Part shown: positions 2 through 62,897 of the stretch, piece by piece
Layout: the number at the start of each line of letters is the position of its first letter
Numbering within the stretch: the stretch's first letter is position 1
Source: a phage
Direction: 5' to 3' (one strand)
Sequence record: OZ346228.1
Length of the DNA stretch: 64,000 bases
The notes under the pieces: generated by a model
Database searches by the model: none
Seen by the model: only the letters and a program-made list of their open reading frames with translations
Told to the model about the DNA's origin: nothing
Translations under genes and position numbers: made by a program

Positions 2-1261
2 GGCACCTCCACACCACAACCTTTACCTAAAGAGCTGATGGATCAGGCAATAAGCGATCTGCAACAGAAGCGAATGCCTGACTGCAAGATACCTATGAAA
101 ATCAGCAATCAGGACGACATTAAGCGATACCTGATCAGTGCTGGTTGGCTTCCGACAATGTGGAGAACTAAGGATGTAACTAAGGACAGCAAGAAGAAAG
201 CTCTACCTGATGCAGATGTTGATGCACGAGTATATGCATACATGGACGAGCTTTTAGAGTCAGAGTATTGTGACCTAATTATCAACTTCTGGAACAAAAC
301 TGATGCTAAGTTTCAGACAACAGTGCACAAGTTCCGAAGCTTTCCTAACTCCGAAAGGATTAAAAAGGAAGTGTTCGGGAAAATACGCAGAAAAGCCAGG
401 GCACTTATTACTTCTCCGCAACTGAAAGATACGTTTGGACACCTATGTCCGAATCTTGAAAAATTGAACGGAGAGATGGCTAAAGATATCGTCTTGTGGT
501 TATCATTGCGAAACCGCAGATCGGTCCTTGATCCAATCAAGGAGGATAAGGTTGATACTGGTCTTCTTAATCACCCACGTTTGAAGATTGACCATAAGCT
601 TCCTGCTAAAAGCTCTGGATTAACAAACACTTCCCGACAGAAACACAGTATTTGTGCAAACATGCCTAAACCATCTCCTAAAGTGGTTATGGGTAAAGAG
701 ATGCGTAGCTTGTGGGGTGTTCCTCCTGGATACTTTGAGATCGGTATTGACGGGTCCAACTTAGAGCAGCTTATCGGGGCTTGGGGTGCCTTTGAGTTCG
801 ACAACGGCTTGTACTATGATGTTGTAAGTAACGGGGACGCACACCAAAACAATGCTGAGGCATATACAAAAGTAGCAGGCAGAGAGGTGTCTCGTAACGA
901 CGGTAAACCTATCACGTATGGGGTTATGTACGGGGCACAAAAAGATAAAGTTGCAGATATGCTGGATATCTCCCCAGAGTTGGGGCAAAGGGTGATCGAT
1001 GCACTTTGGGATGCCAACCCAGGTCTTAAGGGGCGCAAAGAGGATCTGGAGAAATTCTGGGAAGCAACAGGTAAGAAGTTTATCTACTCTTTTGATGGTC
1101 ATGCTATCTGGACCCGATCTAAACACTCTTTACTTAATGCATACCAACAAAATGGCGGCGCATCGTTGTGTGACTTAGTTGGGATACTCATGCACCATCA
1201 AATGGTGAAGCGTGGGTGGTACGATGAAGGTGTTCGTCGTATTATCTATTACCATAAATAA
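2..1261 (+). CDS. DNA polymerase family A, fingers/palm portion; 5' end lies outside window; frame stops just before motif C
   Basis: Frame open from window start. Motif A-like IDGSNLEQL, motif B RNDGKPITYGVMYGAQ, and colinear similarity to T7/PolI through ...LLNAYQQNGGASLCDL...KRGWYDEG; ends ...IIYYHK* where HDE motif C is expected. Confidence 0.85.
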   Translation, partial: GTSTPQPLPKELMDQAISDLQQKRMPDCKIPMKISNQDDIKRYLISAGWLPTMWRTKDVTKDSKKKALPDADVDARVYAYMDELLESEYCDLIINFWNKTDAKFQTTVHKFRSFPNSERIKKEVFGKIRRKARALITSPQLKDTFGHLCPNLEKLNGEMAKDIVLWLSLRNRRSVLDPIKEDKVDTGLLNHPRLKIDHKLPAKSSGLTNTSRQKHSICANMPKPSPKVVMGKEMRSLWGVPPGYFEIGIDGSNLEQLIGAWGAFEFDNGLYYDVVSNGDAHQNNAEAYTKVAGREVSRNDGKPITYGVMYGAQKDKVADMLDISPELGQRVIDALWDANPGLKGRKEDLEKFWEATGKKFIYSFDGHAIWTRSKHSLLNAYQQNGGASLCDLVGILMHHQMVKRGWYDEGVRRIIYYHK

Positions 1262-2300
1262 CATTGTGGCTTCGTGCAGTGATGCACGTCGAAAACCTCT
1301 TTAATTGACGGGAAGGCTAAGTTGACTTTTACACCTAAACATGGTAAAAGCTCAATATGCTAATCCGCAGCGAAGACTAAAGGGGTGTAGTTAAAATGGC
1401 TAGATCAGTTGAGTATCACGGATATACCGTGTTTGATGATGGAACAATACCTTTATCGAAACGTGATCATACAACAATGTTTTGTTTTGATAATGGTCGA
1501 GGTTACCTTTGCGTAACCATGTTCATCGAGGGGAAGCAGTGCACAAAAGGTGTCCACCACTTGGTTGCTGAATGCTTTGTATCAAACCCTGATCCTGAAA
1601 GGCTCACATGGGTGAACCATAAGGACGGAAACAAATACAACAATGCATACTGGAACCTTGAATGGACCACCCCTGGTGGAAATATCAAACACGCTTATGA
1701 TAATGACCTCAGAGTAAGGCCAGTCGGTGAGTATAATGCCAACGCTGTACTGACCGAGGATGAGGTAACGGAGATTTGCGAACTGTTACAAAGTGGTTTA
1801 CGACAATGCGAGATTAGGGATCTTGGGTATCCTTATGAGACGGTCAGAGCCATAAAGCAAAGAAGACAGTGGAAACATATCTCTAAAAACTACACCTGGT
1901 AGTAACGTTCAGAGACTATCGAAAGCATAGCGCCAACATAAATTGGTGCGAAGAAGCGAGTAGAGTAGACCAGCAAGTGCGGTCGAAATGGGAGGTGCCT
2001 TGGTAACAAGGTAGTGAGATAGTCCGATCCATACAGGAAACTGTATGGCTGTGCACGTAATGGTGCGGGGTAGCTTAACGACCTACCTGAACTATTGGAT
2101 GAGTACCAACTTCAAGTCCCTGACACACCGAAGTATAAGACTGTGTACACCTTCGACACAATCGAAGAACTGGAAGCATTTAAGGCAGAGCAGGAGGCCA
2201 AACTTCATGTGTTCGACGGTCATAAGTACAAAAAGGCACGCAAGGATGAGGACGGAAACGAAGTGGTTGACAGAGACGGAAACACGGTGTACGATCCTAT
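1256..2300 (+). mobile_element. Putative self-splicing intron (group I-like) carrying an HNH homing endonuclease, inserted at Pol A motif C; boundaries approximate
   Basis: Polymerase frame broken at motif C; HNH ORF inside; C-terminal polymerase residues resume in ORF 2095-2451; GNRA-capped hairpin ccatacag-gaaa-ctgtatgg at 2029-2048. Confidence 0.45.
1396..1902 (+). CDS. HNH homing endonuclease (intron-encoded)
   Basis: HNH motif region WVNHKDGNKYNNAYWNLEW; RBS-like aaagggg upstream of ATG; sits between the polymerase segments. Confidence 0.8.
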   Translation: MARSVEYHGYTVFDDGTIPLSKRDHTTMFCFDNGRGYLCVTMFIEGKQCTKGVHHLVAECFVSNPDPERLTWVNHKDGNKYNNAYWNLEWTTPGGNIKHAYDNDLRVRPVGEYNANAVLTEDEVTEICELLQSGLRQCEIRDLGYPYETVRAIKQRRQWKHISKNYTW

Positions 2301-2500: not shown

Positions 2501-2785
2501 ATGGTAGTAGAACCAACAAAAACATTTACATCCATGACTATCCCTGTTATTATGCAGGTGGAGTGTGTTCAGGTATCTCAAGTGTGGCCTGGCACCAAAA
2601 TCCCGACAGGGCCTGATTTCTTTCAGGTTGGCAAAGTGTACAATGTCTGGAAGGCACCAGATTGTTACCCTTTCATCAAAGATGACCGTGGGATGCTGTG
2701 GTATCTTGGAAATGATTTGACACTGCACCTTGGGAATGCTATTATTGCAGTATTCAGACTTAACAAGAAGGAGACTGATCAATGA
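2501..2785 (+). CDS. hypothetical protein
   Basis: RBS agaggag before internal ATG (MVVEPTK...); stop overlaps next start (ATGA). Confidence 0.5.
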   Translation: MVVEPTKTFTSMTIPVIMQVECVQVSQVWPGTKIPTGPDFFQVGKVYNVWKAPDCYPFIKDDRGMLWYLGNDLTLHLGNAIIAVFRLNKKETDQ

Positions 2786-3009
2786 CGACTTTGGTTAAAG
2801 CTACCTTTGTAGAAGAAAAGATGACAGACCTGTCATTCTTTAAAGAAGGAAAGACCTACGAGGTTTATTACGATAAAGCTCGTGCAAATAAAATGATTAA
2901 AGACGAGGAAGGGGTTGCCTGGTTTATCTCCCATCTGGCAAACGGTGAGTATCATATCTACGGAACCACCCTGCTTGCCAAGTTTGTAGCTGTTGAAGAG
3001 GACCTATGA
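2782..3009 (+). CDS. hypothetical protein
   Basis: RBS aaggagac; ATGA overlap with upstream ORF. Confidence 0.6.
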   Translation: MTTLVKATFVEEKMTDLSFFKEGKTYEVYYDKARANKMIKDEEGVAWFISHLANGEYHIYGTTLLAKFVAVEEDL

Positions 3010-3200
3010 AAGTAAAGTATCTGGCTGAGGGTATGAGTAGGTATTTCACCCTTGGTGAAGAATATTGGCCATTTACAAGCAACGGCGATGTCTACGTGAA
3101 AGATAATTTCGGCACGCCATGGTTTTTGCACCCTAACGGGTTAGGGTATTCTATTTATCGCAGTGCAATGAGCGACACAACCCTTGCAGAGTTTGTATAG
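3006..3200 (+). CDS. hypothetical protein
   Basis: Start overlaps upstream stop; RBS gaagagga. Confidence 0.5.
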   Translation: MKVKYLAEGMSRYFTLGEEYWPFTSNGDVYVKDNFGTPWFLHPNGLGYSIYRSAMSDTTLAEFV

Positions 3201-3210
3201 AGGAGGTAGA

Positions 3211-3582
3211 ATGTTAGTAAAAGGTACTCACACAGTCAAACAACGTATCGAAGTTGAGATCGATGACTGCGAGCTGAAGCATATTTTACGGTCATGTTCC
3301 AACGTTTTGCTCCTTAGTATTCTCCAGGAGCGAGCGGAGAACGAGTTCTTAAATGCACTGGCAGGCCGCCCTGGTGATTTCTGTGTGCGTAAGCGTGGTG
3401 ACAACAAGTCATGGCTGTGGGAGATAGACGCAGAATGGGATTACCATAAAAATGAGGGTATAGATGAACCTATTCGTGAATTGACGGACAACGAGGTTCA
3501 GATGTACAATGAAGTTTGTCAGTGGGCAAAAAGTCAACAAACTTATCTTGATCCTTGGTGGATGATCGAAAATAGTCGTTGA
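3211..3582 (+). CDS. hypothetical protein
   Basis: RBS gaggaggt before ATG at 3211 (MLVKG...). Confidence 0.55.
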   Translation: MLVKGTHTVKQRIEVEIDDCELKHILRSCSNVLLLSILQERAENEFLNALAGRPGDFCVRKRGDNKSWLWEIDAEWDYHKNEGIDEPIRELTDNEVQMYNEVCQWAKSQQTYLDPWWMIENSR

Positions 3583-35613: not shown

Positions 35614-36087
35614 CTAGTCTACCTGAACCCAACCGCCTGATACTTTTTTAAACATTCTTTGGTTATCACTGCCTCGGAACGGTTTCTTGGTTGGTAAATC
35701 TTTTACATACTTACCGTCAATGATGATATCAGCCAGTTTAATAACATCACTAGAGATATGGTCAAATGTGAACCCAGTATATACAAGAATAGTTTTCTTG
35801 TCACCAAATTTTTCCTTAATTTTCTCCATCAGGCTAATAATATCTGGCTCATTATAGTATGCTAAGGGTTCTCCACCCAGTAGAGAGATACCGCACACAG
35901 ACGGGTTATCTAAATCTGACAAGATTTTTTGCAAGTCTTCTTCAGTGAACTTCCTCCCCTTATCTTTTGACCAAAATGCCTGATTAAAGCAACCAGGGCA
36001 AGCGTGTGGGCACCCAGATACCCACAAGGCAGTTCTAATACCTGGTCCTTCGGTGTAAGATATTTCTGTGTATCCAGCAATGTTCAT
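35614..36087 (-). CDS. nrdG: anaerobic ribonucleotide reductase activating protein (radical SAM)
   Basis: Cys cluster CPHACPGC; adjacent to nrdD. Confidence 0.8.
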   Translation of the reverse strand: MNIAGYTEISYTEGPGIRTALWVSGCPHACPGCFNQAFWSKDKGRKFTEEDLQKILSDLDNPSVCGISLLGGEPLAYYNEPDIISLMEKIKEKFGDKKTILVYTGFTFDHISSDVIKLADIIIDGKYVKDLPTKKPFRGSDNQRMFKKVSGGWVQVD

Positions 36088-36263: not shown

Positions 36264-37472
36264 TCAGCAACCACAACTTCCGTAGTGCTTAACTCGCTCG
36301 ATAACTTCCGCTTGCTTACCTTTATTGTAAGGACGGGAGTTAGGACTGGAAAGGTATCCAGACACACGTCGAATTACACTGATCGTTCCCTCTTCATGGT
36401 TTCCACACTCTGGGCATACAAAGCCTTTAGCTGTTGCACTGAACTCACCAGAGAAACCACACTTGAGACATTTATCCACAGGTTGGTTAATACCAAAATA
36501 CATAATGTGTTTATACCCGAAGTCAACAAGAGCCTCTAAAGCATCCAGGTTGTTTTTCAGGTTAGGTGTTTCTACGTATCCGATGTTGCCACCAGAGGAT
36601 ATCATAGCAAAACCTTCTTCATACTCCCACTTATCAAAAGGAGAGCTATTGATCCATACTGGCTGATGGAAACTGTTGGTGAGATATTCATGCTCGTGCT
36701 TCAACACTTCAGGATATTCACGATCCAGACAGGTTGCAGCTTTATAGCATAGACTCTCAGAAGGGGTGCCGTACAAACTAAACGCTAGTCTACTTTTCTT
36801 CTTGTATCGCTCACAAGCATCTCTCATGTGCTGAAGTATTCCAAGAGCTAAAGCCTTGTCACCCTCTCTGCCCAAAATCTGACAGGTTTCATACACACCA
36901 ATATACCCAATACTGATGGAAGCGTACCCGTCATAGAAGAGTTTATCAATACTCTCTTCAGGATCCAGGCGAGCAAGAGCGCCTTCACACCACATGATAG
37001 GGTTCTGCCCTGCCTTAGTGCCTTTCAGACGGTTAACCCTTACAAGGTGAGCTTCATATGCCAAATCCAGATACTCGTCAAGAACGGAAAAGAAATCAAC
37101 ACCTTCCGTCTTAGCTTTTGCCGCAATCATTGGCAGGTTAAGACTAACAACACCCAAGTTGAATCTGCCGAGGTATTTCTCCTCACCTGTTTCCAAGTCA
37201 TTGTATTTGCTAAGAAAACTCCGGCAACCCATGCTCGTTACTTTACCATCTGTCGAGCCTGTCACTTTACGATTTAGTGGAACAGAAACAAAGTCAGGAT
37301 AAATCCGCTCTGCAGAGCATTCCAGAGCTAATCGTTTCAAATCATAGTTAGGATCTCCAGGGTTCATGTTGACACCCTCTTCTAGGAAGAACAACACTTT
37401 AGGGAACACAGGTGTGATACGTTCTTCACCAAGACCCATTTTGTGGACTTTCAAGTAGTTTTTGGTAATCAT
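36264..37472 (-). CDS. nrdD: anaerobic ribonucleoside-triphosphate reductase, C-terminal part (glycyl radical domain)
   Basis: C-terminal glycyl-radical motif RVSGYLS and terminal Cys pair; N-terminal part is in separate upstream ORF. Confidence 0.8.
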   Translation of the reverse strand: MITKNYLKVHKMGLGEERITPVFPKVLFFLEEGVNMNPGDPNYDLKRLALECSAERIYPDFVSVPLNRKVTGSTDGKVTSMGCRSFLSKYNDLETGEEKYLGRFNLGVVSLNLPMIAAKAKTEGVDFFSVLDEYLDLAYEAHLVRVNRLKGTKAGQNPIMWCEGALARLDPEESIDKLFYDGYASISIGYIGVYETCQILGREGDKALALGILQHMRDACERYKKKSRLAFSLYGTPSESLCYKAATCLDREYPEVLKHEHEYLTNSFHQPVWINSSPFDKWEYEEGFAMISSGGNIGYVETPNLKNNLDALEALVDFGYKHIMYFGINQPVDKCLKCGFSGEFSATAKGFVCPECGNHEEGTISVIRRVSGYLSSPNSRPYNKGKQAEVIERVKHYGSCGC

Positions 37473-38320
37473 TCTACCAAAGACTGAGGTGTCCAGACCT
37501 AAACTTAATGTGATGAATGGAGTCTGCTGTCTCCTCCCTGTGTTTCCACAGGGCCAGACTATCTCTTACTCTACTTCAATAAGATAATAACCCTTTATTG
37601 TGAGATGCTTACCTTCGGCATTTCCTTCGATAGCCCTATGAACGTTACCTACGTTCAAATTTAAGGCTTTTGCACAGGCATAGAGTGAAGGATATTCACC
37701 CACCAAGGTTTTACCTTTGTATGCCTGCACTTTCCTATAGCACTTACCTGGACAAAGTCCTGTTCGGAAAGCATGTCTCTTATTATCTTCCGGCAAAACC
37801 CACTCTAGGTTAGACGGATGATCATTCAATGTATTGCCATCTTTATGATTCACTTCCCAGTTTTCAGGGTCTTCTGGGACATCCGGCAAACAATACAAGG
37901 CAACAATCCTTGAGGTTTGGATTCGAATCTTTTTACCTTTGTGGTTGAAAGAGTACATATAACGGCGTTTAACATGCTTGTTACCTTTTCCATAACCTCC
38001 CCACAATATTGGGTGTAGCATTCCACGTTTTCCGTATACGTTTCCAACCTCATCAATCACATAGTTTGATTCTTCACCATTAAGAATGATCTTTTTCATA
38101 GAGCCTCTCCATTTCGAAGTTAGTATTTCAACTAACCCCTACACTACTTGGTTCAGAAATGTTTGTCAAGCATTTCTGCCTTTCGTTAGTCGTTACAACC
38201 GTTCCAACTCCTGTAAGAACTAGTCACGGGATTGGCATAGCTTTCGCCTTAGCGTTCCCCGTTAGCCGGATTTACCGACCCCTCTTATGAGGTTAGGAGA
38301 GTTTTACAACGGCCAGTTTG
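37473..38320 (-). mobile_element. intervening sequence in nrdD (intron-like) carrying HNH endonuclease; bounds approximate
   Basis: nrdD reading frame split into two ORFs flanking an HNH ORF; about 220 nt of ORF-free hairpin-rich sequence at 38100-38320. Confidence 0.45.
37566..38099 (-). CDS. HNH homing endonuclease
   Basis: WEVNHKDGNTLNDHPSNLEW HNH motif; paralogous to 1396-1902. Confidence 0.8.
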   Translation of the reverse strand: MKKIILNGEESNYVIDEVGNVYGKRGMLHPILWGGYGKGNKHVKRRYMYSFNHKGKKIRIQTSRIVALYCLPDVPEDPENWEVNHKDGNTLNDHPSNLEWVLPEDNKRHAFRTGLCPGKCYRKVQAYKGKTLVGEYPSLYACAKALNLNVGNVHRAIEGNAEGKHLTIKGYYLIEVE

Positions 38321-39184
38321 TTAACCGTTGACAGAAGTTAACGTGTTGATTTGATAGAGCAAAGTCTGCATGCTGTCAAATACGTCTTTATCTGTCATTT
38401 GCATTGCAACAGTTTCAGCATCCGGCAACCAATGTTCCTGGCAAAATTTAAGGTTCTTCTCATAGGTTGCTTCAGCATACTGTGCCAGATAATGATCAAT
38501 ATGGCTCATAGTCTGACCACCATATTGAGCACTAGCTACCGCACTAGAGATTTGGCTAAGGATTGTTGTTGCAACCCCTATTGACTTCGGCTTACTGACA
38601 TGGGCGTTACCAATGTTGAATCCGTTTTCCAACATATCTGGATAATTTACCAAACAACAGTTTGTTAACGGACTGATCAAGTAGTCAAGATCATGCACAT
38701 GGATGAATCCTTTATTGTGCTCTTCGGAGACACGGTCTGGCAGGATCTGTGTTGATGCAAGGTGTTTGCTAAGAATACCTGCAAGCAGGTCGCGATGAGT
38801 GTGTACATGATTAGTAGGCTTATTTGCGTTTTCTTTTGTAAATTCATCACAAGTTCGATCCAAGAAGCCACTAATATCTGCAAGCAGTTTTCCACCTGCC
38901 TCTCTGTTATTATCTCTTGTCTGTCTATACTGGATGTATTCTCTGGCTGCACATTTTAAACCCATATCCATAAGAGCATCTTCAACAAGGATATGGATAT
39001 TTTTTACAGAGATCGTGCACTGGTCGGTTGGTAGATTGTTAGCAACAACTTCATTAACCGCGCAGGCGATCCGGTAAGCTTCTTCTTCAGTATGTCCAGA
39101 CTCAAGTAAGGCGGACTCTGCCGCCTTGATCACCTTAATTCCGTTATAGAACTCTTCTCTACCGTCCCGTTTTACAACTTTCAC
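38321..39184 (-). CDS. nrdD: anaerobic ribonucleoside-triphosphate reductase, N-terminal part (ATP-cone)
   Basis: N-terminus MKVVKRDGREEFYNGIKV ATP-cone-like; continues in 36264-37472. Confidence 0.75.
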   Translation of the reverse strand: MKVVKRDGREEFYNGIKVIKAAESALLESGHTEEEAYRIACAVNEVVANNLPTDQCTISVKNIHILVEDALMDMGLKCAAREYIQYRQTRDNNREAGGKLLADISGFLDRTCDEFTKENANKPTNHVHTHRDLLAGILSKHLASTQILPDRVSEEHNKGFIHVHDLDYLISPLTNCCLVNYPDMLENGFNIGNAHVSKPKSIGVATTILSQISSAVASAQYGGQTMSHIDHYLAQYAEATYEKNLKFCQEHWLPDAETVAMQMTDKDVFDSMQTLLYQINTLTSVNG

Positions 39185-39459
39185 TTTTTCTCTCCAAAAC
39201 CATTCTTAACAAAAGAGATGAAATCGTCGGCACCGCCTATATGGACACTGTCAAGATCGCTTTCTAAGAAGATCTGCGGCAACGTTCTGGGGACAATTGG
39301 ACTGCACTTCTCAATAAGCTCTTCTTTTGTGTAGCCCTCGCCAAGTGTCTTATATACAAAAGGCAGACCTTTGCTGATTGCAAATTCTTTTGCTCTGACA
39401 CAATGTGGGCAGTTATCATTACCGTAAATGATGATGAAAAAAGATTTTTCGCAGCTCAT
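39181..39459 (-). CDS. glutaredoxin/NrdH-like redoxin
   Basis: CPHC active-site motif; sits between nrdB and nrdD. Confidence 0.7.
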   Translation of the reverse strand: MSCEKSFFIIIYGNDNCPHCVRAKEFAISKGLPFVYKTLGEGYTKEELIEKCSPIVPRTLPQIFLESDLDSVHIGGADDFISFVKNGFGEKK

Positions 39460-39462
39460 ATA

Positions 39463-40552
39463 TTAAAACTCCCAAATTTCTTCTTCAGCGTCGTTAACAG
39501 TTGTGTTGACGCGGTAGTCAGTGTTCGACATTTCTTGGTTCGCCGTCTGTTGTAATGAAGGTTTCATCCACACCTGCATAAACGGTAGCGGGTCCTTTGT
39601 TGGCGGCACAAAGTCTTTGTCGATGTCGTAGTAATCATAAATCGGTGAGCAGTTATAGTCAACCCACTCTTTAAGCAACGGTGAGTTAAGACCTATAATC
39701 GCTCTTCCTTCGCTGAAAATATAGTCACTCCAACCGTACTCTTTGGTTCGTACTTCATCAAGAATCTCTTTTAACTCCCCCTTTATCTCAAGGAAGCTTT
39801 TCTCCCATGCGGGATCATTAAGCAAGATATCAATGATGGCAAAATCACCTTTCGAATGTAGCATTTCGTCAAGCATGATTTTTTGAACAAGCTGCGCCAC
39901 CTGAACAAAGATACCCTGTTCAGCTACTGCGAAAGTGCATGCAAAACTTGCAATAAACTCAATACTTTCCAGAGCTAAAAGTGCAAAAAGCGCTCTAAGA
40001 ATGCATTTCCGCACAACATCTTCTTCAACACTAGAAGGATCCAGTCGGTATTTTGCACCAATAACCTCAAGCTCTTGCATGTATTTGACAATAACGCCAG
40101 ATCTGCTCAGAACGTTTTGGTTTTCCTGAATCTCTTCTATAATCTCACGGGCATTGGGGAGGCATTGTCTAACAATCTCTGAGTAAGTTAGTGCGTGAAG
40201 AACTTCAATCTCTGACTGTTTCATCAATAGAGTGAAAAGCTCACTATTAGTGATGAATGGTGAAAAGAGGCAGATGATCGATCTTGCCGCAACGCTATCA
40301 GCCTCCCATTGCCACATCAAGGTCTGCACCATCACGTCATAAGTTGACTTTGAGCATGTTACAAAATCTGAAATAGATTGCGACAAATCCACTTCATCCT
40401 CTGCCCAATCTTGCTCTTTTTGTTTTTTGTATAGTTCAAACAGTTGTGGATATTTTTTGTTGATAGAGTCGTACATACCCATTTGCTGTCCCAGAAACAG
40501 CGGATAGTCACCAGTTTTATGAGCGGTGTTCTCAGCATTAAATACAGCCATT
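39463..40552 (-). CDS. nrdB: ribonucleotide reductase class Ia small subunit (R2)
   Basis: Colinear with E. coli NrdB (LFLGQ, WAEDEVD, ALESIEFIASFACTFAVAE, DEMLHS, DYIFSEGRAIIGLN); start set at ATG after RBS agaggtag. Confidence 0.85.
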
Positions 40553-40565
40553 ATTCTACCTCTAA

Positions 40566-40586
40566 AATGGGGCCGAAGCCCCTTTA
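40566..40586 (-). terminator. intercistronic hairpin between nrdA and nrdB
   Basis: aaaggggcttcggccccatttt on the - strand. Confidence 0.4.
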
Positions 40587-40589
40587 AAA

Positions 40590-42905
40590 TTATAGTGCAC
40601 AGCTTTCGCAATACGGATCTTCAACTGAACTATCTGCAATCAAAGGATAGTTCTTTCTGGTTTCATCTTCAGCCTGTTTCTTGGCATGGAGTTCCTCTGC
40701 CAAGGAGTCACCAGCACCAACCCTAGAGTTTAAATAATACCATGTCTTCATCCCGAATTTAGTGGCACGGATAAGGTACCCTAGCTGCTCCTTCATTGAA
40801 ATTTTACCATCTTTCAACTTGGTGTAGTCTATGTATAAATCCGCGCTGATTGCCTGACCTGTGAATTTTTGAATCACAGCATACATATCGATCATGTCGT
40901 TAGTATCAACGTCCCAAGCCGAAGTGTAATACTCTTTCAACTCATCGTATTCAGGAACGATAAACAGCACCTGCCCTTGTGGCGACTTTTTAAAGATAAT
41001 GTGCTCACGGACAGGATAAACCCCGTTAGTGGTGTTTGTTGCCAGCGAAGAGCTTTCATTAGGCATATATGCTTCAAGAACGCTATTACGTAGCCCACCA
41101 TTTTCAATGATTTCTTTACGTAACCCTTCCCAATCCTGTTTAAGAGAAGGATCTTTCACCACACTATCGACCTCTTTGTTATAAGTGTCGATTGGTAACC
41201 AACCTTCTGGATATTTTGTTTTATACATCCACTCGCAGACACCACGCTCTTTTGCCAACCGTAAACTTGCCTTATGCAAGCTGTAGCTGTGAAGTTCTGC
41301 AAGATCGTGAACAAGCTGTTTACTTTCAGGAGATCCGTAAGTAACCTTGTGGCTGGCAATAAAATGTGCAACATTGGTAAGGCCAACCCCGATGGATCTG
41401 CGTTTTTTAACAGTACTCTCCATGTTTTCATACGGATATGCCATGATTTCCATAACATTGTCAATCATAAGCACCGTGTAGTATGCAACATCCTCATACT
41501 CCTCTGGGGTAACCCTTCCAGCTACAAGAGATGACAGGAAGCACAATGCAACCTCACCATCATCAACATCGTACTTGAAGATATTACGCATATCTGAATA
41601 GCCTTTTGTCGGGAGGGCTATTTCTGCACACAGGTTGCTTGAATAGATCACATCTTTAAAAGGTGTATGTCTATTCATCTCATCTGTCCAGTATACGTAC
41701 AGCCTTCCCACCTCAGTACGCTGCGTGATCAGCTCAACAGCAAGATCTCTAGCCCGGATCCATGTCTTAGGAATACTGTCATCTTTAGCAATACGCTCAA
41801 CCTCTGCATCGAACTCCTCCATAGACATGGTGAAGATACCCTCATACAGTTGAGGAGCGTGCTTATAAGAAACAAGCATCCAATCTAAATTCTTAGCCAC
41901 ACGGTTGATAAACGACCTATTAATACCGATGGAGTAGTCCATGGTGTTGATTCTTTTTGAAGCAACAGTCATAGGGTTTCTCAAACGGATTAGCTCATCA
42001 ATCTGCGGGTCCAGTGCAAGGAATGATACTGTTGCAGAACCGCCACGTGATTGTTGTCTGTTCTCCTTAACACCAGCATCAATACCTCGATAATATGGAA
42101 TCTTACCCATGTGTTTAATAGTGTTACCGCGAACACCATCACCTGCAGATCTTGATGATAAATAGTAGCCGATACCTGCTTGGTTAACCGTCATTGTGTA
42201 CGCAACTTCACGTGCCACACCAATAGATTTTGCTGTATCGTCAGCTTTTATTACACAACAAGATGCATACCCTGTCTTACCTGTGCGCAGCCCGTTTAAG
42301 TACGGTGTCGGGGCATTGATCTTTAAGTCGGACAGATAAGTGTATAATTTTACAACATCGTTGATACGACGTTCTTTCGGCATATTCTTCATGACAGCCA
42401 TTGCTATCCCCATAAACATCATCTGGGGAGATTCAAACAAGGTGTCTTTAAGAGTATCCTTGATCCCGTATTTGTCGCGAAACTGTTTAAGGACTGCATA
42501 GCCATAGCCGAGATCTTTACTGTGGTCAATAACAGCGTCTAAAGTGTTTAGCTCGGTAAAGCTATATCCCATATCCTCCCAATACCCTTTCTCAACCATG
42601 TCGTTGTAAAATGATGGTAAGGAAGGGATCTTTGTAAACCCTCCAAAAGCCTCTTTATAAATCTGACCAATAAGAACACGACCAGCCATACGGGAATGTG
42701 CTTCGTCTTTACGGCTAACACAGGAGTCTATGATAGCTTGGTTAACTTCTTTGGTTGTACATCCATCATACAGTCGTTTGTATGCATCCAGTGCAATATG
42801 TGACCAATTGCCGTTACCGTCGTCACCGAAAATAGCTGCCTTATTTAAACGTTCTGGATCGAATGCCACTTCACATCCGTTGCTTTTAATTACCTTGGTG
42901 ATCAA
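40590..42905 (-). CDS. nrdA: ribonucleotide reductase class Ia large subunit (R1) with ATP-cone
   Basis: N-terminal ATP-cone (VIKSNGCEVAFDPERL), 771 aa, C-terminal Cys pair ...CESCAL. Confidence 0.85.
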   Translation of the reverse strand: MITKVIKSNGCEVAFDPERLNKAAIFGDDGNGNWSHIALDAYKRLYDGCTTKEVNQAIIDSCVSRKDEAHSRMAGRVLIGQIYKEAFGGFTKIPSLPSFYNDMVEKGYWEDMGYSFTELNTLDAVIDHSKDLGYGYAVLKQFRDKYGIKDTLKDTLFESPQMMFMGIAMAVMKNMPKERRINDVVKLYTYLSDLKINAPTPYLNGLRTGKTGYASCCVIKADDTAKSIGVAREVAYTMTVNQAGIGYYLSSRSAGDGVRGNTIKHMGKIPYYRGIDAGVKENRQQSRGGSATVSFLALDPQIDELIRLRNPMTVASKRINTMDYSIGINRSFINRVAKNLDWMLVSYKHAPQLYEGIFTMSMEEFDAEVERIAKDDSIPKTWIRARDLAVELITQRTEVGRLYVYWTDEMNRHTPFKDVIYSSNLCAEIALPTKGYSDMRNIFKYDVDDGEVALCFLSSLVAGRVTPEEYEDVAYYTVLMIDNVMEIMAYPYENMESTVKKRRSIGVGLTNVAHFIASHKVTYGSPESKQLVHDLAELHSYSLHKASLRLAKERGVCEWMYKTKYPEGWLPIDTYNKEVDSVVKDPSLKQDWEGLRKEIIENGGLRNSVLEAYMPNESSSLATNTTNGVYPVREHIIFKKSPQGQVLFIVPEYDELKEYYTSAWDVDTNDMIDMYAVIQKFTGQAISADLYIDYTKLKDGKISMKEQLGYLIRATKFGMKTWYYLNSRVGAGDSLAEELHAKKQAEDETRKNYPLIADSSVEDPYCESCAL

Positions 42906-62084: not shown

Positions 62085-62159
62085 GCCCTGTTAGCTTAGT
62101 GGATAAAGCAGCGGCCTTCTAAGCCGTTGACACTGGTTCGAGTCCAGTACGGGGTGCCA
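62085..62159 (+). tRNA. tRNA-Arg (anticodon TCT)
   Basis: Manual fold: D stem GCTT/AAGC, anticodon loop CTTCTAA, T loop TTCGAGT, 3' CCA encoded; acceptor stem has two G-U pairs. Confidence 0.7.
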
Positions 62160-62163
62160 AATT

Positions 62164-62250
62164 GGGGAGTTATCCCGTAGAGGTAGCGGTGTAGACTGTA
62201 AATCTATTGTCATTGCGACTCGGGTGGTTCGACTCCACCACTCCCCACCA
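62164..62250 (+). tRNA. tRNA-Tyr (anticodon GTA), long variable arm
   Basis: Acceptor GGGGAGT/ACTCCCC, anticodon loop CTGTAAA, T loop TTCGACT, CCA encoded. Confidence 0.8.
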
Positions 62251-62364
62251 AATTTATATTTTTAGATGCATAAATAATACAGATAATGGCATTGATATTT
62301 ATCGTCGTTTATACTAGTCACTAACTGCTCGAAAATCAGTGTCATTATCAGTATTATTTATAAA

Positions 62365-62455
62365 GGAGGGTAGGGAGCAATGGTGCTCAATCGGTCTTGA
62401 AAACCGTCCCGTTGAGGATGACTCGATGATGGTTCGATTCCATTACTCTCCGCCA
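62365..62455 (+). tRNA. tRNA-Ser (anticodon TGA), long variable arm
   Basis: Acceptor GGAGGGT/ACTCTCC, anticodon loop CTTGAAA, T loop TTCGATT, CCA encoded. Confidence 0.7.
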
Positions 62456-62553
62456 CATTGTTGACCTTGTAATTAAGCGAAAGTCGGAAGCAGAACCGGA
62501 TTATCAAATGTTACAGTCGTCATCGCCGACTAGCAACATGGTCAACATACTGA

Positions 62554-62652
62554 GCTAGGTAAGCCCTTTGGCAAGGGCGAGGATTTTTAATCCTGAAAAT
62601 AGACGAGGTAGTCGTTGAATACATAGGTGGTTCGATTCCATCACCTAGCACC
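62554..62652 (+). tRNA. atypical tRNA-like gene; anticodon loop TTTTTAA (Lys-TTT-like), about 28 nt extra between anticodon and T arms; may be a pseudo-tRNA
   Basis: Acceptor GCTAGGT/ACCTAGC, D arm GCCC-TTTGGCAA-GGGC, T loop TTCGATT; variable region far longer than class I; CCA not fully encoded. Confidence 0.35.
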
Positions 62653-62657
62653 TTTTT

Positions 62658-62733
62658 GCTGATGTAGCACAATCGGTAGTGCAATTGATTTGTAATCAAT
62701 AGGTTGTAGGTTCAAGTCCTGCCATCAGCACCA
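62658..62733 (+). tRNA. tRNA-Thr (anticodon TGT)
   Basis: Acceptor GCTGATG/CATCAGC, anticodon stem-loop ATTGA-TTTGTAA-TCAAT, T loop TTCAAGT, CCA encoded. Confidence 0.8.
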
Positions 62734-62734
62734 A

Positions 62735-62809
62735 GGCCCTGTAGCTGGAAGGTTCAAGCAAGCGACTCATAATCGCCAGACGGTGGTTCAATTCCACCCA
62801 GGGCCACCA
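62735..62809 (+). tRNA. tRNA-Met/Ile2-type (anticodon CAT)
   Basis: Acceptor GGCCCTG/CAGGGCC, anticodon loop CTCATAA, T loop TTCAATT, CCA encoded. Confidence 0.8.
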
Positions 62810-62820
62810 AATAGTAAATA

Positions 62821-62897
62821 CTCCGCGTAGCTCAGCTTGGTAGAGCGCCTGATTTGGGATCAGGAGGTCGAGTGTTCGAATCACTCCGTGGAGACCA
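62821..62897 (+). tRNA. tRNA-Pro (anticodon TGG)
   Basis: C1-G72 acceptor, D stem GCTC/GAGC, anticodon stem-loop CCTGA-TTTGGGA-TCAGG, T loop TTCGAAT, CCA encoded. Confidence 0.8.

Follow-up and report, generated by a model that had tools for sequence, protein, structure and literature searches.

A probable SPO1-type group I intron carrying an HNH endonuclease gene in nrdD of a Vequintavirus phage

The window analyzed here is a 64,000-nucleotide (nt) stretch of phage DNA (sequence record OZ346228.1). In it nrdD, the gene for the anaerobic ribonucleotide reductase (RNR), is found as two open reading frames (ORFs) that flank the ORF of an HNH endonuclease. This arrangement raises the question of whether the gene is broken, is expressed in pieces, or is restored by splicing. 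The segment belongs to a Vequintavirus (rV5-like coliphage) genome, its region around nrdD is 99.7% identical to Escherichia phage magaca, and all genes discussed at this locus are on the minus strand. The nrdD 5' ORF (39184..38321), the HNH ORF (38099..37566, 177 aa, matched by Pfam HNH_3) and the nrdD 3' ORF (37472..36264) lie where the initial annotation had placed them. The domains that it had named are also there: the N-terminal ORF contains the ATP-cone and positions 1-154 of the Pfam NRDD profile, and the C-terminal part, translated from 37526, contains positions 156-562 and the glycyl-radical domain. Because these two stretches of the profile flank the HNH_3 ORF, nrdD is interrupted once, and cleanly. 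We put the probability that the interruption, 38323..37527, is a mobile SPO1-type group I intron with an HNH endonuclease ORF at about 90%, and the evidence begins with the protein that its removal would produce.

Joining exon 1 (39184..38324) to exon 2 (37526..36264) gives a 2124-nt ORF of 707 aa. Exon 1 starts with GTG, encodes the ATP-cone followed by ~170 residues from the start of the NrdD core, and ends with AAC GGU. Exon 2 starts with CAG ACU CCA (QTPF) and encodes the rest of the core, the Cys4 zinc site and RVSGY. The insertion point falls inside the conserved NGQTPF motif, after the Gly codon and before the Gln codon, and the bounds of the 797-nt insert come from intron-less alleles, from continuity with T4 NrdD and the Pfam profile, and from the RNA structure. 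The joined protein aligns with T4 NrdD (PDB 1H78) at an E value of 1e-167 and without a gap across the join (SVNG/QTPFITL against SSNGQTPFVTI in T4; here and below a slash within a sequence marks the insertion point), and the NRDD profile runs on continuously over it. Phage nimi has a single uninterrupted nrdD coding sequence (CDS) that is also 2124 nt long, and its product is identical to the predicted spliced protein at 705/708 positions. The predicted junction is matched as one uninterrupted 400-nt piece in many sister phages. The ATP-cone, the NrdD core, the Cys4 zinc site (CxxC...CxxC) and the glycyl-radical motif RVSGY all fall in one polypeptide (Pfam ATP-cone, NRDD, Gly_radical), and the predicted joined product is thus a class III ribonucleotide reductase NrdD with all defining features tested present. 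The initial annotation had started the C-terminal part at 37472. The ORF does have its ATG there, but as an exon start this position fails: the downstream exon begins at 37526, 54 nt upstream, and the 18 codons in between (QTPFITLSLGLDTSVFGR) continue the frame of exon 2 and have conserved counterparts in T4 NrdD.

Alleles from related phages fix the insertion site to the nucleotide, as the initial annotation had expected of a comparison with intron-less nrdD. Within Vequintavirus, ~80 records have intron-less nrdD, 14 have an ORF-less 257-nt intron, and ~31 have the HNH form. The junction reads AACGGG/CAAACT in intron-less alleles, AACGGT/(797 nt)/CAGACT in the window and AACGGT/(257 nt)/CAAACC in the ORF-less allele. 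The intron-less site, a putative target of the HNH enzyme, is GTCAACGGG/CAAACTCC, and the intron-less nimi allele around it reads GTCAACGGGCAAACTCCATTC. Position -1 is part of GGT in intron-bearing alleles only and of GGG in intron-less ones; this synonymous G-to-T change supplies the U for the U.G pair needed at a group I 5' splice site. The likewise synonymous CAA to CAG change in the window extends the P10 pairing (CAG with CUG of the guide loop).

These observations bear on an alternative in which the HNH gene sits in nrdD without a functional intron and the two NrdD halves are translated separately and reassemble. This is what happens in Aeromonas phage Aeh1, where the HNH endonuclease gene mobE likewise parts nrdA in two, there is no intron, and the halves act as separate polypeptides (PMC2988022, PMC7344957). 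In Vequintavirus, NrdD appears in most GenBank records as two separate ORFs, the downstream one with its ATG at 37472 in the window. In phage CB7, a related subfamily member, reverse transcription PCR showed that HNH-bearing introns in other genes splice, and one HNH insert did not splice (PMC7344957). Separate translation would, however, leave 18 conserved in-frame codons stranded upstream of the ATG of the downstream ORF, and an ORF-less 257-nt insert that still splits nrdD in 14 records would be purposeless in a split gene. The GGG to GGT and CAA to CAG changes suit the requirements of splicing instead, and the window differs from Aeh1 in having an ORF-less intron allele and a complete group I fold supported by covariation (below). 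We consider separate translation improbable.

The ends of the insert are also informative. Intron bases 1-3 are UAA, a stop in frame with exon 1, and in-frame stops at the intron start are common among bacterial group I introns (PMC3984707). The insert ends in G (omega-G, 37527), and exon ligation after it would restore the reading frame. An intein or a programmed translational bypass could in principle join the halves at the level of the protein or the ribosome, and phage genes of nucleotide metabolism are known to include inteins and a bypass element. Against this, the UAA follows exon 1 directly and the insert does not form a single ORF in frame with the exons. A Pfam scan found no intein family in the HNH protein, and 797 nt is far above the 50-nt T4 bypass gap given in a preprint. 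Judged from the sequence, joining by intein or bypass is effectively excluded.

Because RF00028, the Rfam group I model, scores below its gathering threshold here as it does for the SPO1 polymerase intron, the structure was derived directly. Intron positions (i) are 38324 minus the window coordinate. P1 (38330..38307) pairs exon CAACGGU (38330..38324) with the guide GCCGUUG (38313..38307, i11-17), placing U.G at the splice site, and CUG (38316..38314) can form a short P10 with the exon-2 CAG. The P3 5' strand CUCUCC (38301..38296, i23-28) pairs with GGAGAG (38110..38105, i214-219). Two peripheral hairpins, CCUC-AUAA-GAGG and GUCGG-UAAAU-CCGGC (38292..38265; i32-43, i45-59), lie between the P3 5' strand and J3/4-P4. 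The P4-P5-P5a-P6 domain (38261..38201, i63-123) contains CGGGG...UCCCG, a GAAA loop on P5a, and P6 formed by GUUCUUAC with GUUGGAAC. The P7 5' strand GACUA (38191..38187, i133-137) pairs with UAGUC (37561..37557, i763-767), which gives the predicted fold a P3/P7 pseudoknot. The peripheral hairpins P7.1 (38180..38150, i144-174) and P7.2 (38139..38116, i185-208) are typical of subgroup IA. P8 is formed by GCUCUA (38104..38099, i220-225) and UAGAGU (37573..37568, i751-756), and the HNH ORF lies entirely inside its loop. The P8 5' strand ends with the A of the HNH AUG; the stop codon shares base 37568 with the end of the P8 3' strand and runs into J8/7. J8/7 (AGAGA), the P7 3' strand and P9 occupy 37565..37536, and P9 itself is CCCUGUG-GAAA-CACAGGG (37553..37536, i771-788) with a GAAA loop. 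Omega-G is i797.

The fold is supported by homologues, which are cited by L numbers where they must be told apart. All helices are fully paired in the window, in the ORF-less intron of phage HeinrichReichert (L001) and in the distant L021 except for one U.U in P6, and many of the differences are compensatory. P1 has 7/7 pairs in these three homologues with compensatory changes in L001 and L021. P3 occurs in compensatory variants (CUCUGC with GCAGGG, CUCUGC with GCAGAG, CUCUUC with GGAGAG, CUCUCU with AGAGAG) and is anchored by the canonical relatives L012, L018, L023, L024 and L026, which read UAAAA-CUCUCU-UAA-ACGGGG ... GAAAC-AGAGAG-P8. The P3 that Rfam proposes for the ORF-less form takes up the second hairpin's 3' strand; it pairs poorly and was rejected, whereas CUCUCC with GGAGAG covaries and fits the canonical relatives. 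Minimum free energy (MFE) folding, blind to the model, recovers P1, the long-range P3, both hairpins, P4-P5, P6, P7.1 and P7.2. The initial annotation had described ~220 nt of ORF-free, hairpin-rich sequence ahead of the HNH ORF, and this segment (38323..38100) is real and strongly structured: its MFE z-score is -5.0, that of the ORF-less intron is -3.4, and 0/200 shuffles were as stable.

A formal pairing count used nine ORF-trimmed homologues in a MAFFT alignment that had not been tuned. P8 was left out of the count because MAFFT misaligned the ORF-less forms in P7.1-P8, and P3 was included with two misaligned rows; both helices were checked by hand. In this count 85.2% of cells are paired, against 76.4% after shuffling (0/500 as good) and 34-51% when the partners are slid, and 21 pairs have changed on both sides where 10 are expected (0/500).

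The features of a group I intron were found together: P1 with U.G, the P3-P8 and P4-P6 domains, the P3/P7 pseudoknot, the J8/7-P7 consensus and omega-G. The mark of subgroup IA is the pair of extra hairpins, P7.1 and P7.2, that separates the P7 5' strand from the P3 3' strand. The closest known layout is that of the intron within the gene for DNA polymerase (gene 31) of Bacillus phage SPO1, which has the same order of P1, P3 5' strand, hairpins, UAA, P4-P6, P7, P7.1, P7.2, P3', P8 with ORF, P7' and P9. In SPO1 these stand at 163 (P3 5' strand), 239 (P4), 312 (P7), 382 (P3') and 389/943 (P8), with the ORF of the endonuclease I-HmuI at 430..954. In both introns the ORF at its 3' end overlaps with the P8 3' strand, the endonuclease is of the same family and RF00028 is below threshold. 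They differ in host gene (DNA polymerase in SPO1, nrdD in the window), in host (Gram-positive against E. coli), in the hairpins after P3 (three against two) and in the place of the Shine-Dalgarno sequence, which is within the P8 loop in SPO1 and is the P3 3' strand itself in the window. Identity between the two proteins is low. The two hairpins after P3 recur in L008, L009, L011, L025, L027 and the SPO1 intron; a new structural subclass defined by them was considered and is ruled out by the SPO1 intron with the same layout, and a literature search for extra hairpins between P3 and P4 ('P3.1/P3.2') found nothing relevant. The insert is therefore predicted to be an SPO1-type group I intron (IA-like, with P7.1/P7.2), with no new structural class.

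L021 (IMGVR_UViG_3300033120_000502) comes from a distant AT-rich phage and has an intron at the identical NrdD codon boundary (TTNG/QQPF) with the same layout. It carries a 46%-identical HNH orthologue in the same P8 position, and its GGAGAG is both P3' strand and Shine-Dalgarno, as in the window. It differs in having one long hairpin instead of two and almost no P7.1, and its ORF continues through J8/7 and P7' into P9. On the L021 minus strand, ~1040 nt after the first 5' splice site, there is also a second group I-like core (UAAAAUCUAUCUAAAACGGGAAAC…), so nrdD of L021 would contain at least two introns. The second core starts after NrdD residues …SPMG, beside the conserved Cys of the GCRSF motif, an active-site cysteine.

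Two sequence motifs reach beyond these relatives. GUAGGG...GAAAY of the P7.1/P7.2 region is common to the window, T4 and L012-type introns. A near-invariant P4-P5 core, AACGGGGAANGCUAAG…UANGCCAAUCCCGUG, is present in L007 (Listeria phage LP-114), L008 (Bacillus phage S4-2) and 19 IMG/VR contigs (L009-L027), that is, in group I introns of many unrelated phages and genes with ORFs in P6 or P8.

The 177-aa protein is predicted to be an I-HmuI-like HNH homing endonuclease. It scores 29.3 bits against Pfam HNH_3 (cut-off 24.8), and its residues 8-160/177 align with 8-159/174 of I-HmuI (PDB 1U3E) at low identity (E 2.7e-4). This alignment spans the full length and takes in the DNA-binding parts at both the N-terminus and the C-terminus. 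Both catalytic residues, His and Asn, are kept (NHKDGN...N LEW against DHKDGN...NLRW in I-HmuI). The protein is at least 98.9% identical across 28 Vequintavirus records, and the next-best phage matches are below 40% identity. The initial annotation had called it a paralogue of the HNH protein in the polymerase gene of the window. This is weakly true: the two share a family, but they match only locally, with 42% identity in 64 aa surrounding the HNH motif, which does not speak for a recent duplication.

The initial annotation had also drawn an analogy to the intron of T4 nrdD. The general part of it stands, since a group I intron with an endonuclease that is excised precisely to restore a conserved NrdD is what the fold, its covariation and the I-HmuI-like protein point to; as the same intron it does not stand. 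The T4 nrdD (sunY) group IA2 intron, with I-TevII, shares with the window the gene and region, P7.1/P7.2, the J1/3 'UAAAA', a similar J8/7-P7 and a mobile endonuclease. Its site, however, is within the Tyr codon of AYEY/EV, 32 nt upstream of the window site, its enzyme is GIY-YIG rather than HNH, its ORF is downstream of P9 (in P9.1) rather than in P8, and it has no hairpins between P3 and P4. Since site, endonuclease family, ORF position and hairpins all differ, the two introns are independent invasions of the same conserved stretch and not orthologues.

The position of the HNH ORF would link its expression to splicing. Its Shine-Dalgarno sequence GGAGAG coincides with the P3 3' strand and its AUG abuts P8, so ribozyme folding and HNH translation should exclude each other: the folded ribozyme would occlude the ribosome-binding site, and a ribosome on that site would prevent P3 and P8 from forming. 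Such mutual exclusion would hold endonuclease expression low or late and protect splicing. The arrangement is kept in L021 and is absent in SPO1. In T4, intron endonucleases are subject to a similar sequestration of the ribosome-binding site (PMC2988022). An internal sigma-70-like promoter in the P7.1 loop (TTGACA-N17-TAGTGT) was considered because transcripts from there could have a free ribosome-binding site; it is not supported, as it was absent from the output of the promoter scan and shuffled sequence has promoter-like sites just as often as this region. We offer only tentatively the wider idea that the intron contains a built-in switch, by which each transcript either splices or makes endonuclease but not both, and that the NGQTPF region is a hotspot for unrelated intron/endonuclease pairs, comprising the window site and the T4 site 32 nt away.

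Several points weigh against this reading. At gathering thresholds (50 bits for RF00028), a scan of the window with Rfam found tRNAs only. The covariance-model search suggested in the initial annotation does match RF00028 at this intron, but a permissive scan is needed and the score of 27.8 bits is below threshold; the ORF-less form in L001 reaches 29.8 bits over the full model, also below threshold, and the T4 nrdD intron, run as a control, scores 105.3 bits. The metal-ligand Asp that precedes the catalytic His in I-HmuI is Asn in the window protein (NHKDGN), and the coupling of translation to splicing is deduced solely from where sequence elements lie.

The permissive match can be read in detail. 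The scan fitted the whole model into the HNH ORF's 3' end; of this alignment the 5' half is wrongly placed, within the ORF, and was discarded, and the real part is J8/7-P7'-P9 only, whose sequence agrees with the Rfam consensus. The SPO1 polymerase intron, a second control, scores 25.6 bits. As this intron is reportedly self-splicing, the RF00028 threshold does not discriminate for the SPO1-type class. A 2025 study likewise describes partial Rfam hits on ORF-bearing phage introns (PMC11878797).

The low score would also suit a decayed element, in which the ribozyme or the endonuclease is non-functional and nrdD is a pseudogene, not needed for aerobic growth in the laboratory; nrdD is indeed non-essential given nrdAB. 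Both exons are intact, however, and the protein is 99.6% identical to its uninterrupted orthologue. All helices are intact as well, the HNH protein is full-length and conserved across the 28 genomes, and a relative said to be self-splicing scores no better. Decay is thus quite unlikely.

The distribution of alleles adds to the case for a mobile intron. Window exon 1 has 0-1 mismatches per 60 nt against intron-less nimi up to the insertion site. In exon 2 the first ~540 nt have mostly 3-9 mismatches per 60 nt, beyond which the two agree again. In the ORF-less allele, 10 mismatches fall in the 60 nt immediately upstream of the site. Such flanking tracts of divergence are the exon co-conversion expected from homing, and together with the patchy distribution their asymmetry indicates that homing has taken place. 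The near-identity of the HNH protein across the 28 records belongs to the same signature. By the mechanism of the family, the transcript would fold into the P1-P9 ribozyme, exogenous guanosine would attack after the U of GGU (38324), and the freed 3'-OH of exon 1 would attack after omega-G (37527), joining the exons in an mRNA for the 707-aa NrdD. By analogy, the HNH enzyme would nick or cut intron-less nrdD alleles in a mixed infection, and repair of the cut allele would copy the intron and flanking exon sequence.

The element has been partly recognized in public annotations. The BASEL Vequintavirus phages (EmilHeitz MZ501062, HeinrichReichert MZ501073 and others) have the same element at 98% identity, and their GenBank records give nrdD as a two-piece join across a 'putative homing endonuclease' (EmilHeitz) or an ORF-less intron (HeinrichReichert). 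Intron boundaries in BASEL were set by comparative genomics (PMC8594841), and the annotated CDS lengths fit the 797-nt and 257-nt bounds exactly. The BASEL NrdD CDS (L001, L006, L028) starts from an internal Met, 71 codons downstream, and thereby lacks most of the ATP-cone. In the rV5 genome paper introns are mentioned for the terminase gene only and not for nrdD, rV5-like phages are outside the coverage of a survey of phage RNRs, and our literature search found no paper on the structure, subgroup or splicing of this nrdD intron or on its endonuclease. It is an uncharacterized selfish element of a kind that is well known and ordinary among phages.

The genes around nrdD are nrdB (40611..39463), glutaredoxin (grx, 39459..39181), a small ORF between the nrdD 3' ORF and nrdG, and nrdG (36087..35614). 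The GTG start of nrdD overlaps the glutaredoxin stop codon (GTGA, 39181..39184), which suggests translational coupling of the two genes.

Other insertions were seen in nrdD and elsewhere. Phage JEP1 (L003, MT740314) has a second intron further down nrdD (2780..3530; RF00028 32.9 bits at 3252-3486), with a 3' core closely like that of the T4 nrdD intron (…GAAGAUAUAGUCUGAUCUGCAUGGGGACAUGCAG) and its own HNH ORF (2877..3386). Extra insertions in the nrdD region also occur in the Vequintavirus records ECML-10, phita32, nomine and 'Campylobacter phage C2'. The 'Campylobacter phage' records MG0656xx (C2, D1, A141, A147 and others) are 96-99% identical to E. coli vequintaviruses over nrdD, and their Campylobacter host labels look doubtful. 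On the plus strand of the window, 1246..2047 matches the full RF00028 model (1-253) at 39.1 bits, below threshold, and spans an HNH ORF (1396..1902) that follows a DNA-polymerase-like ORF (38..1261) and precedes the next ORF (2095..). The polymerase gene probably contains another HNH-bearing intron here. A plus-strand cluster of at least six tRNA genes lies at 62085..62894, with weaker tRNA-Sec-like matches at 62164-62246 and 62365-62451.

Our current understanding of group I introns is unchanged by this element, and its consequences are for annotation and for the range of a known class. Most public Vequintavirus records show two NrdD fragments and a stray HNH gene where there should be one joined nrdD CDS, with exon 2 starting 54 nt upstream of the ATG used in most GenBank records. 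Because RF00028 misses the SPO1-type class, in the window as in SPO1 itself, automated screens will under-count phage introns, and the P4-P5 core is a handy search motif for those that are missed. That this insertion lies only 32 nt away from the intron site of T4 lends support to the idea that homing strikes conserved RNR motifs repeatedly. SPO1-type intron and HNH pairs, best known from Gram-positive phages, would appear to circulate in coliphages too.

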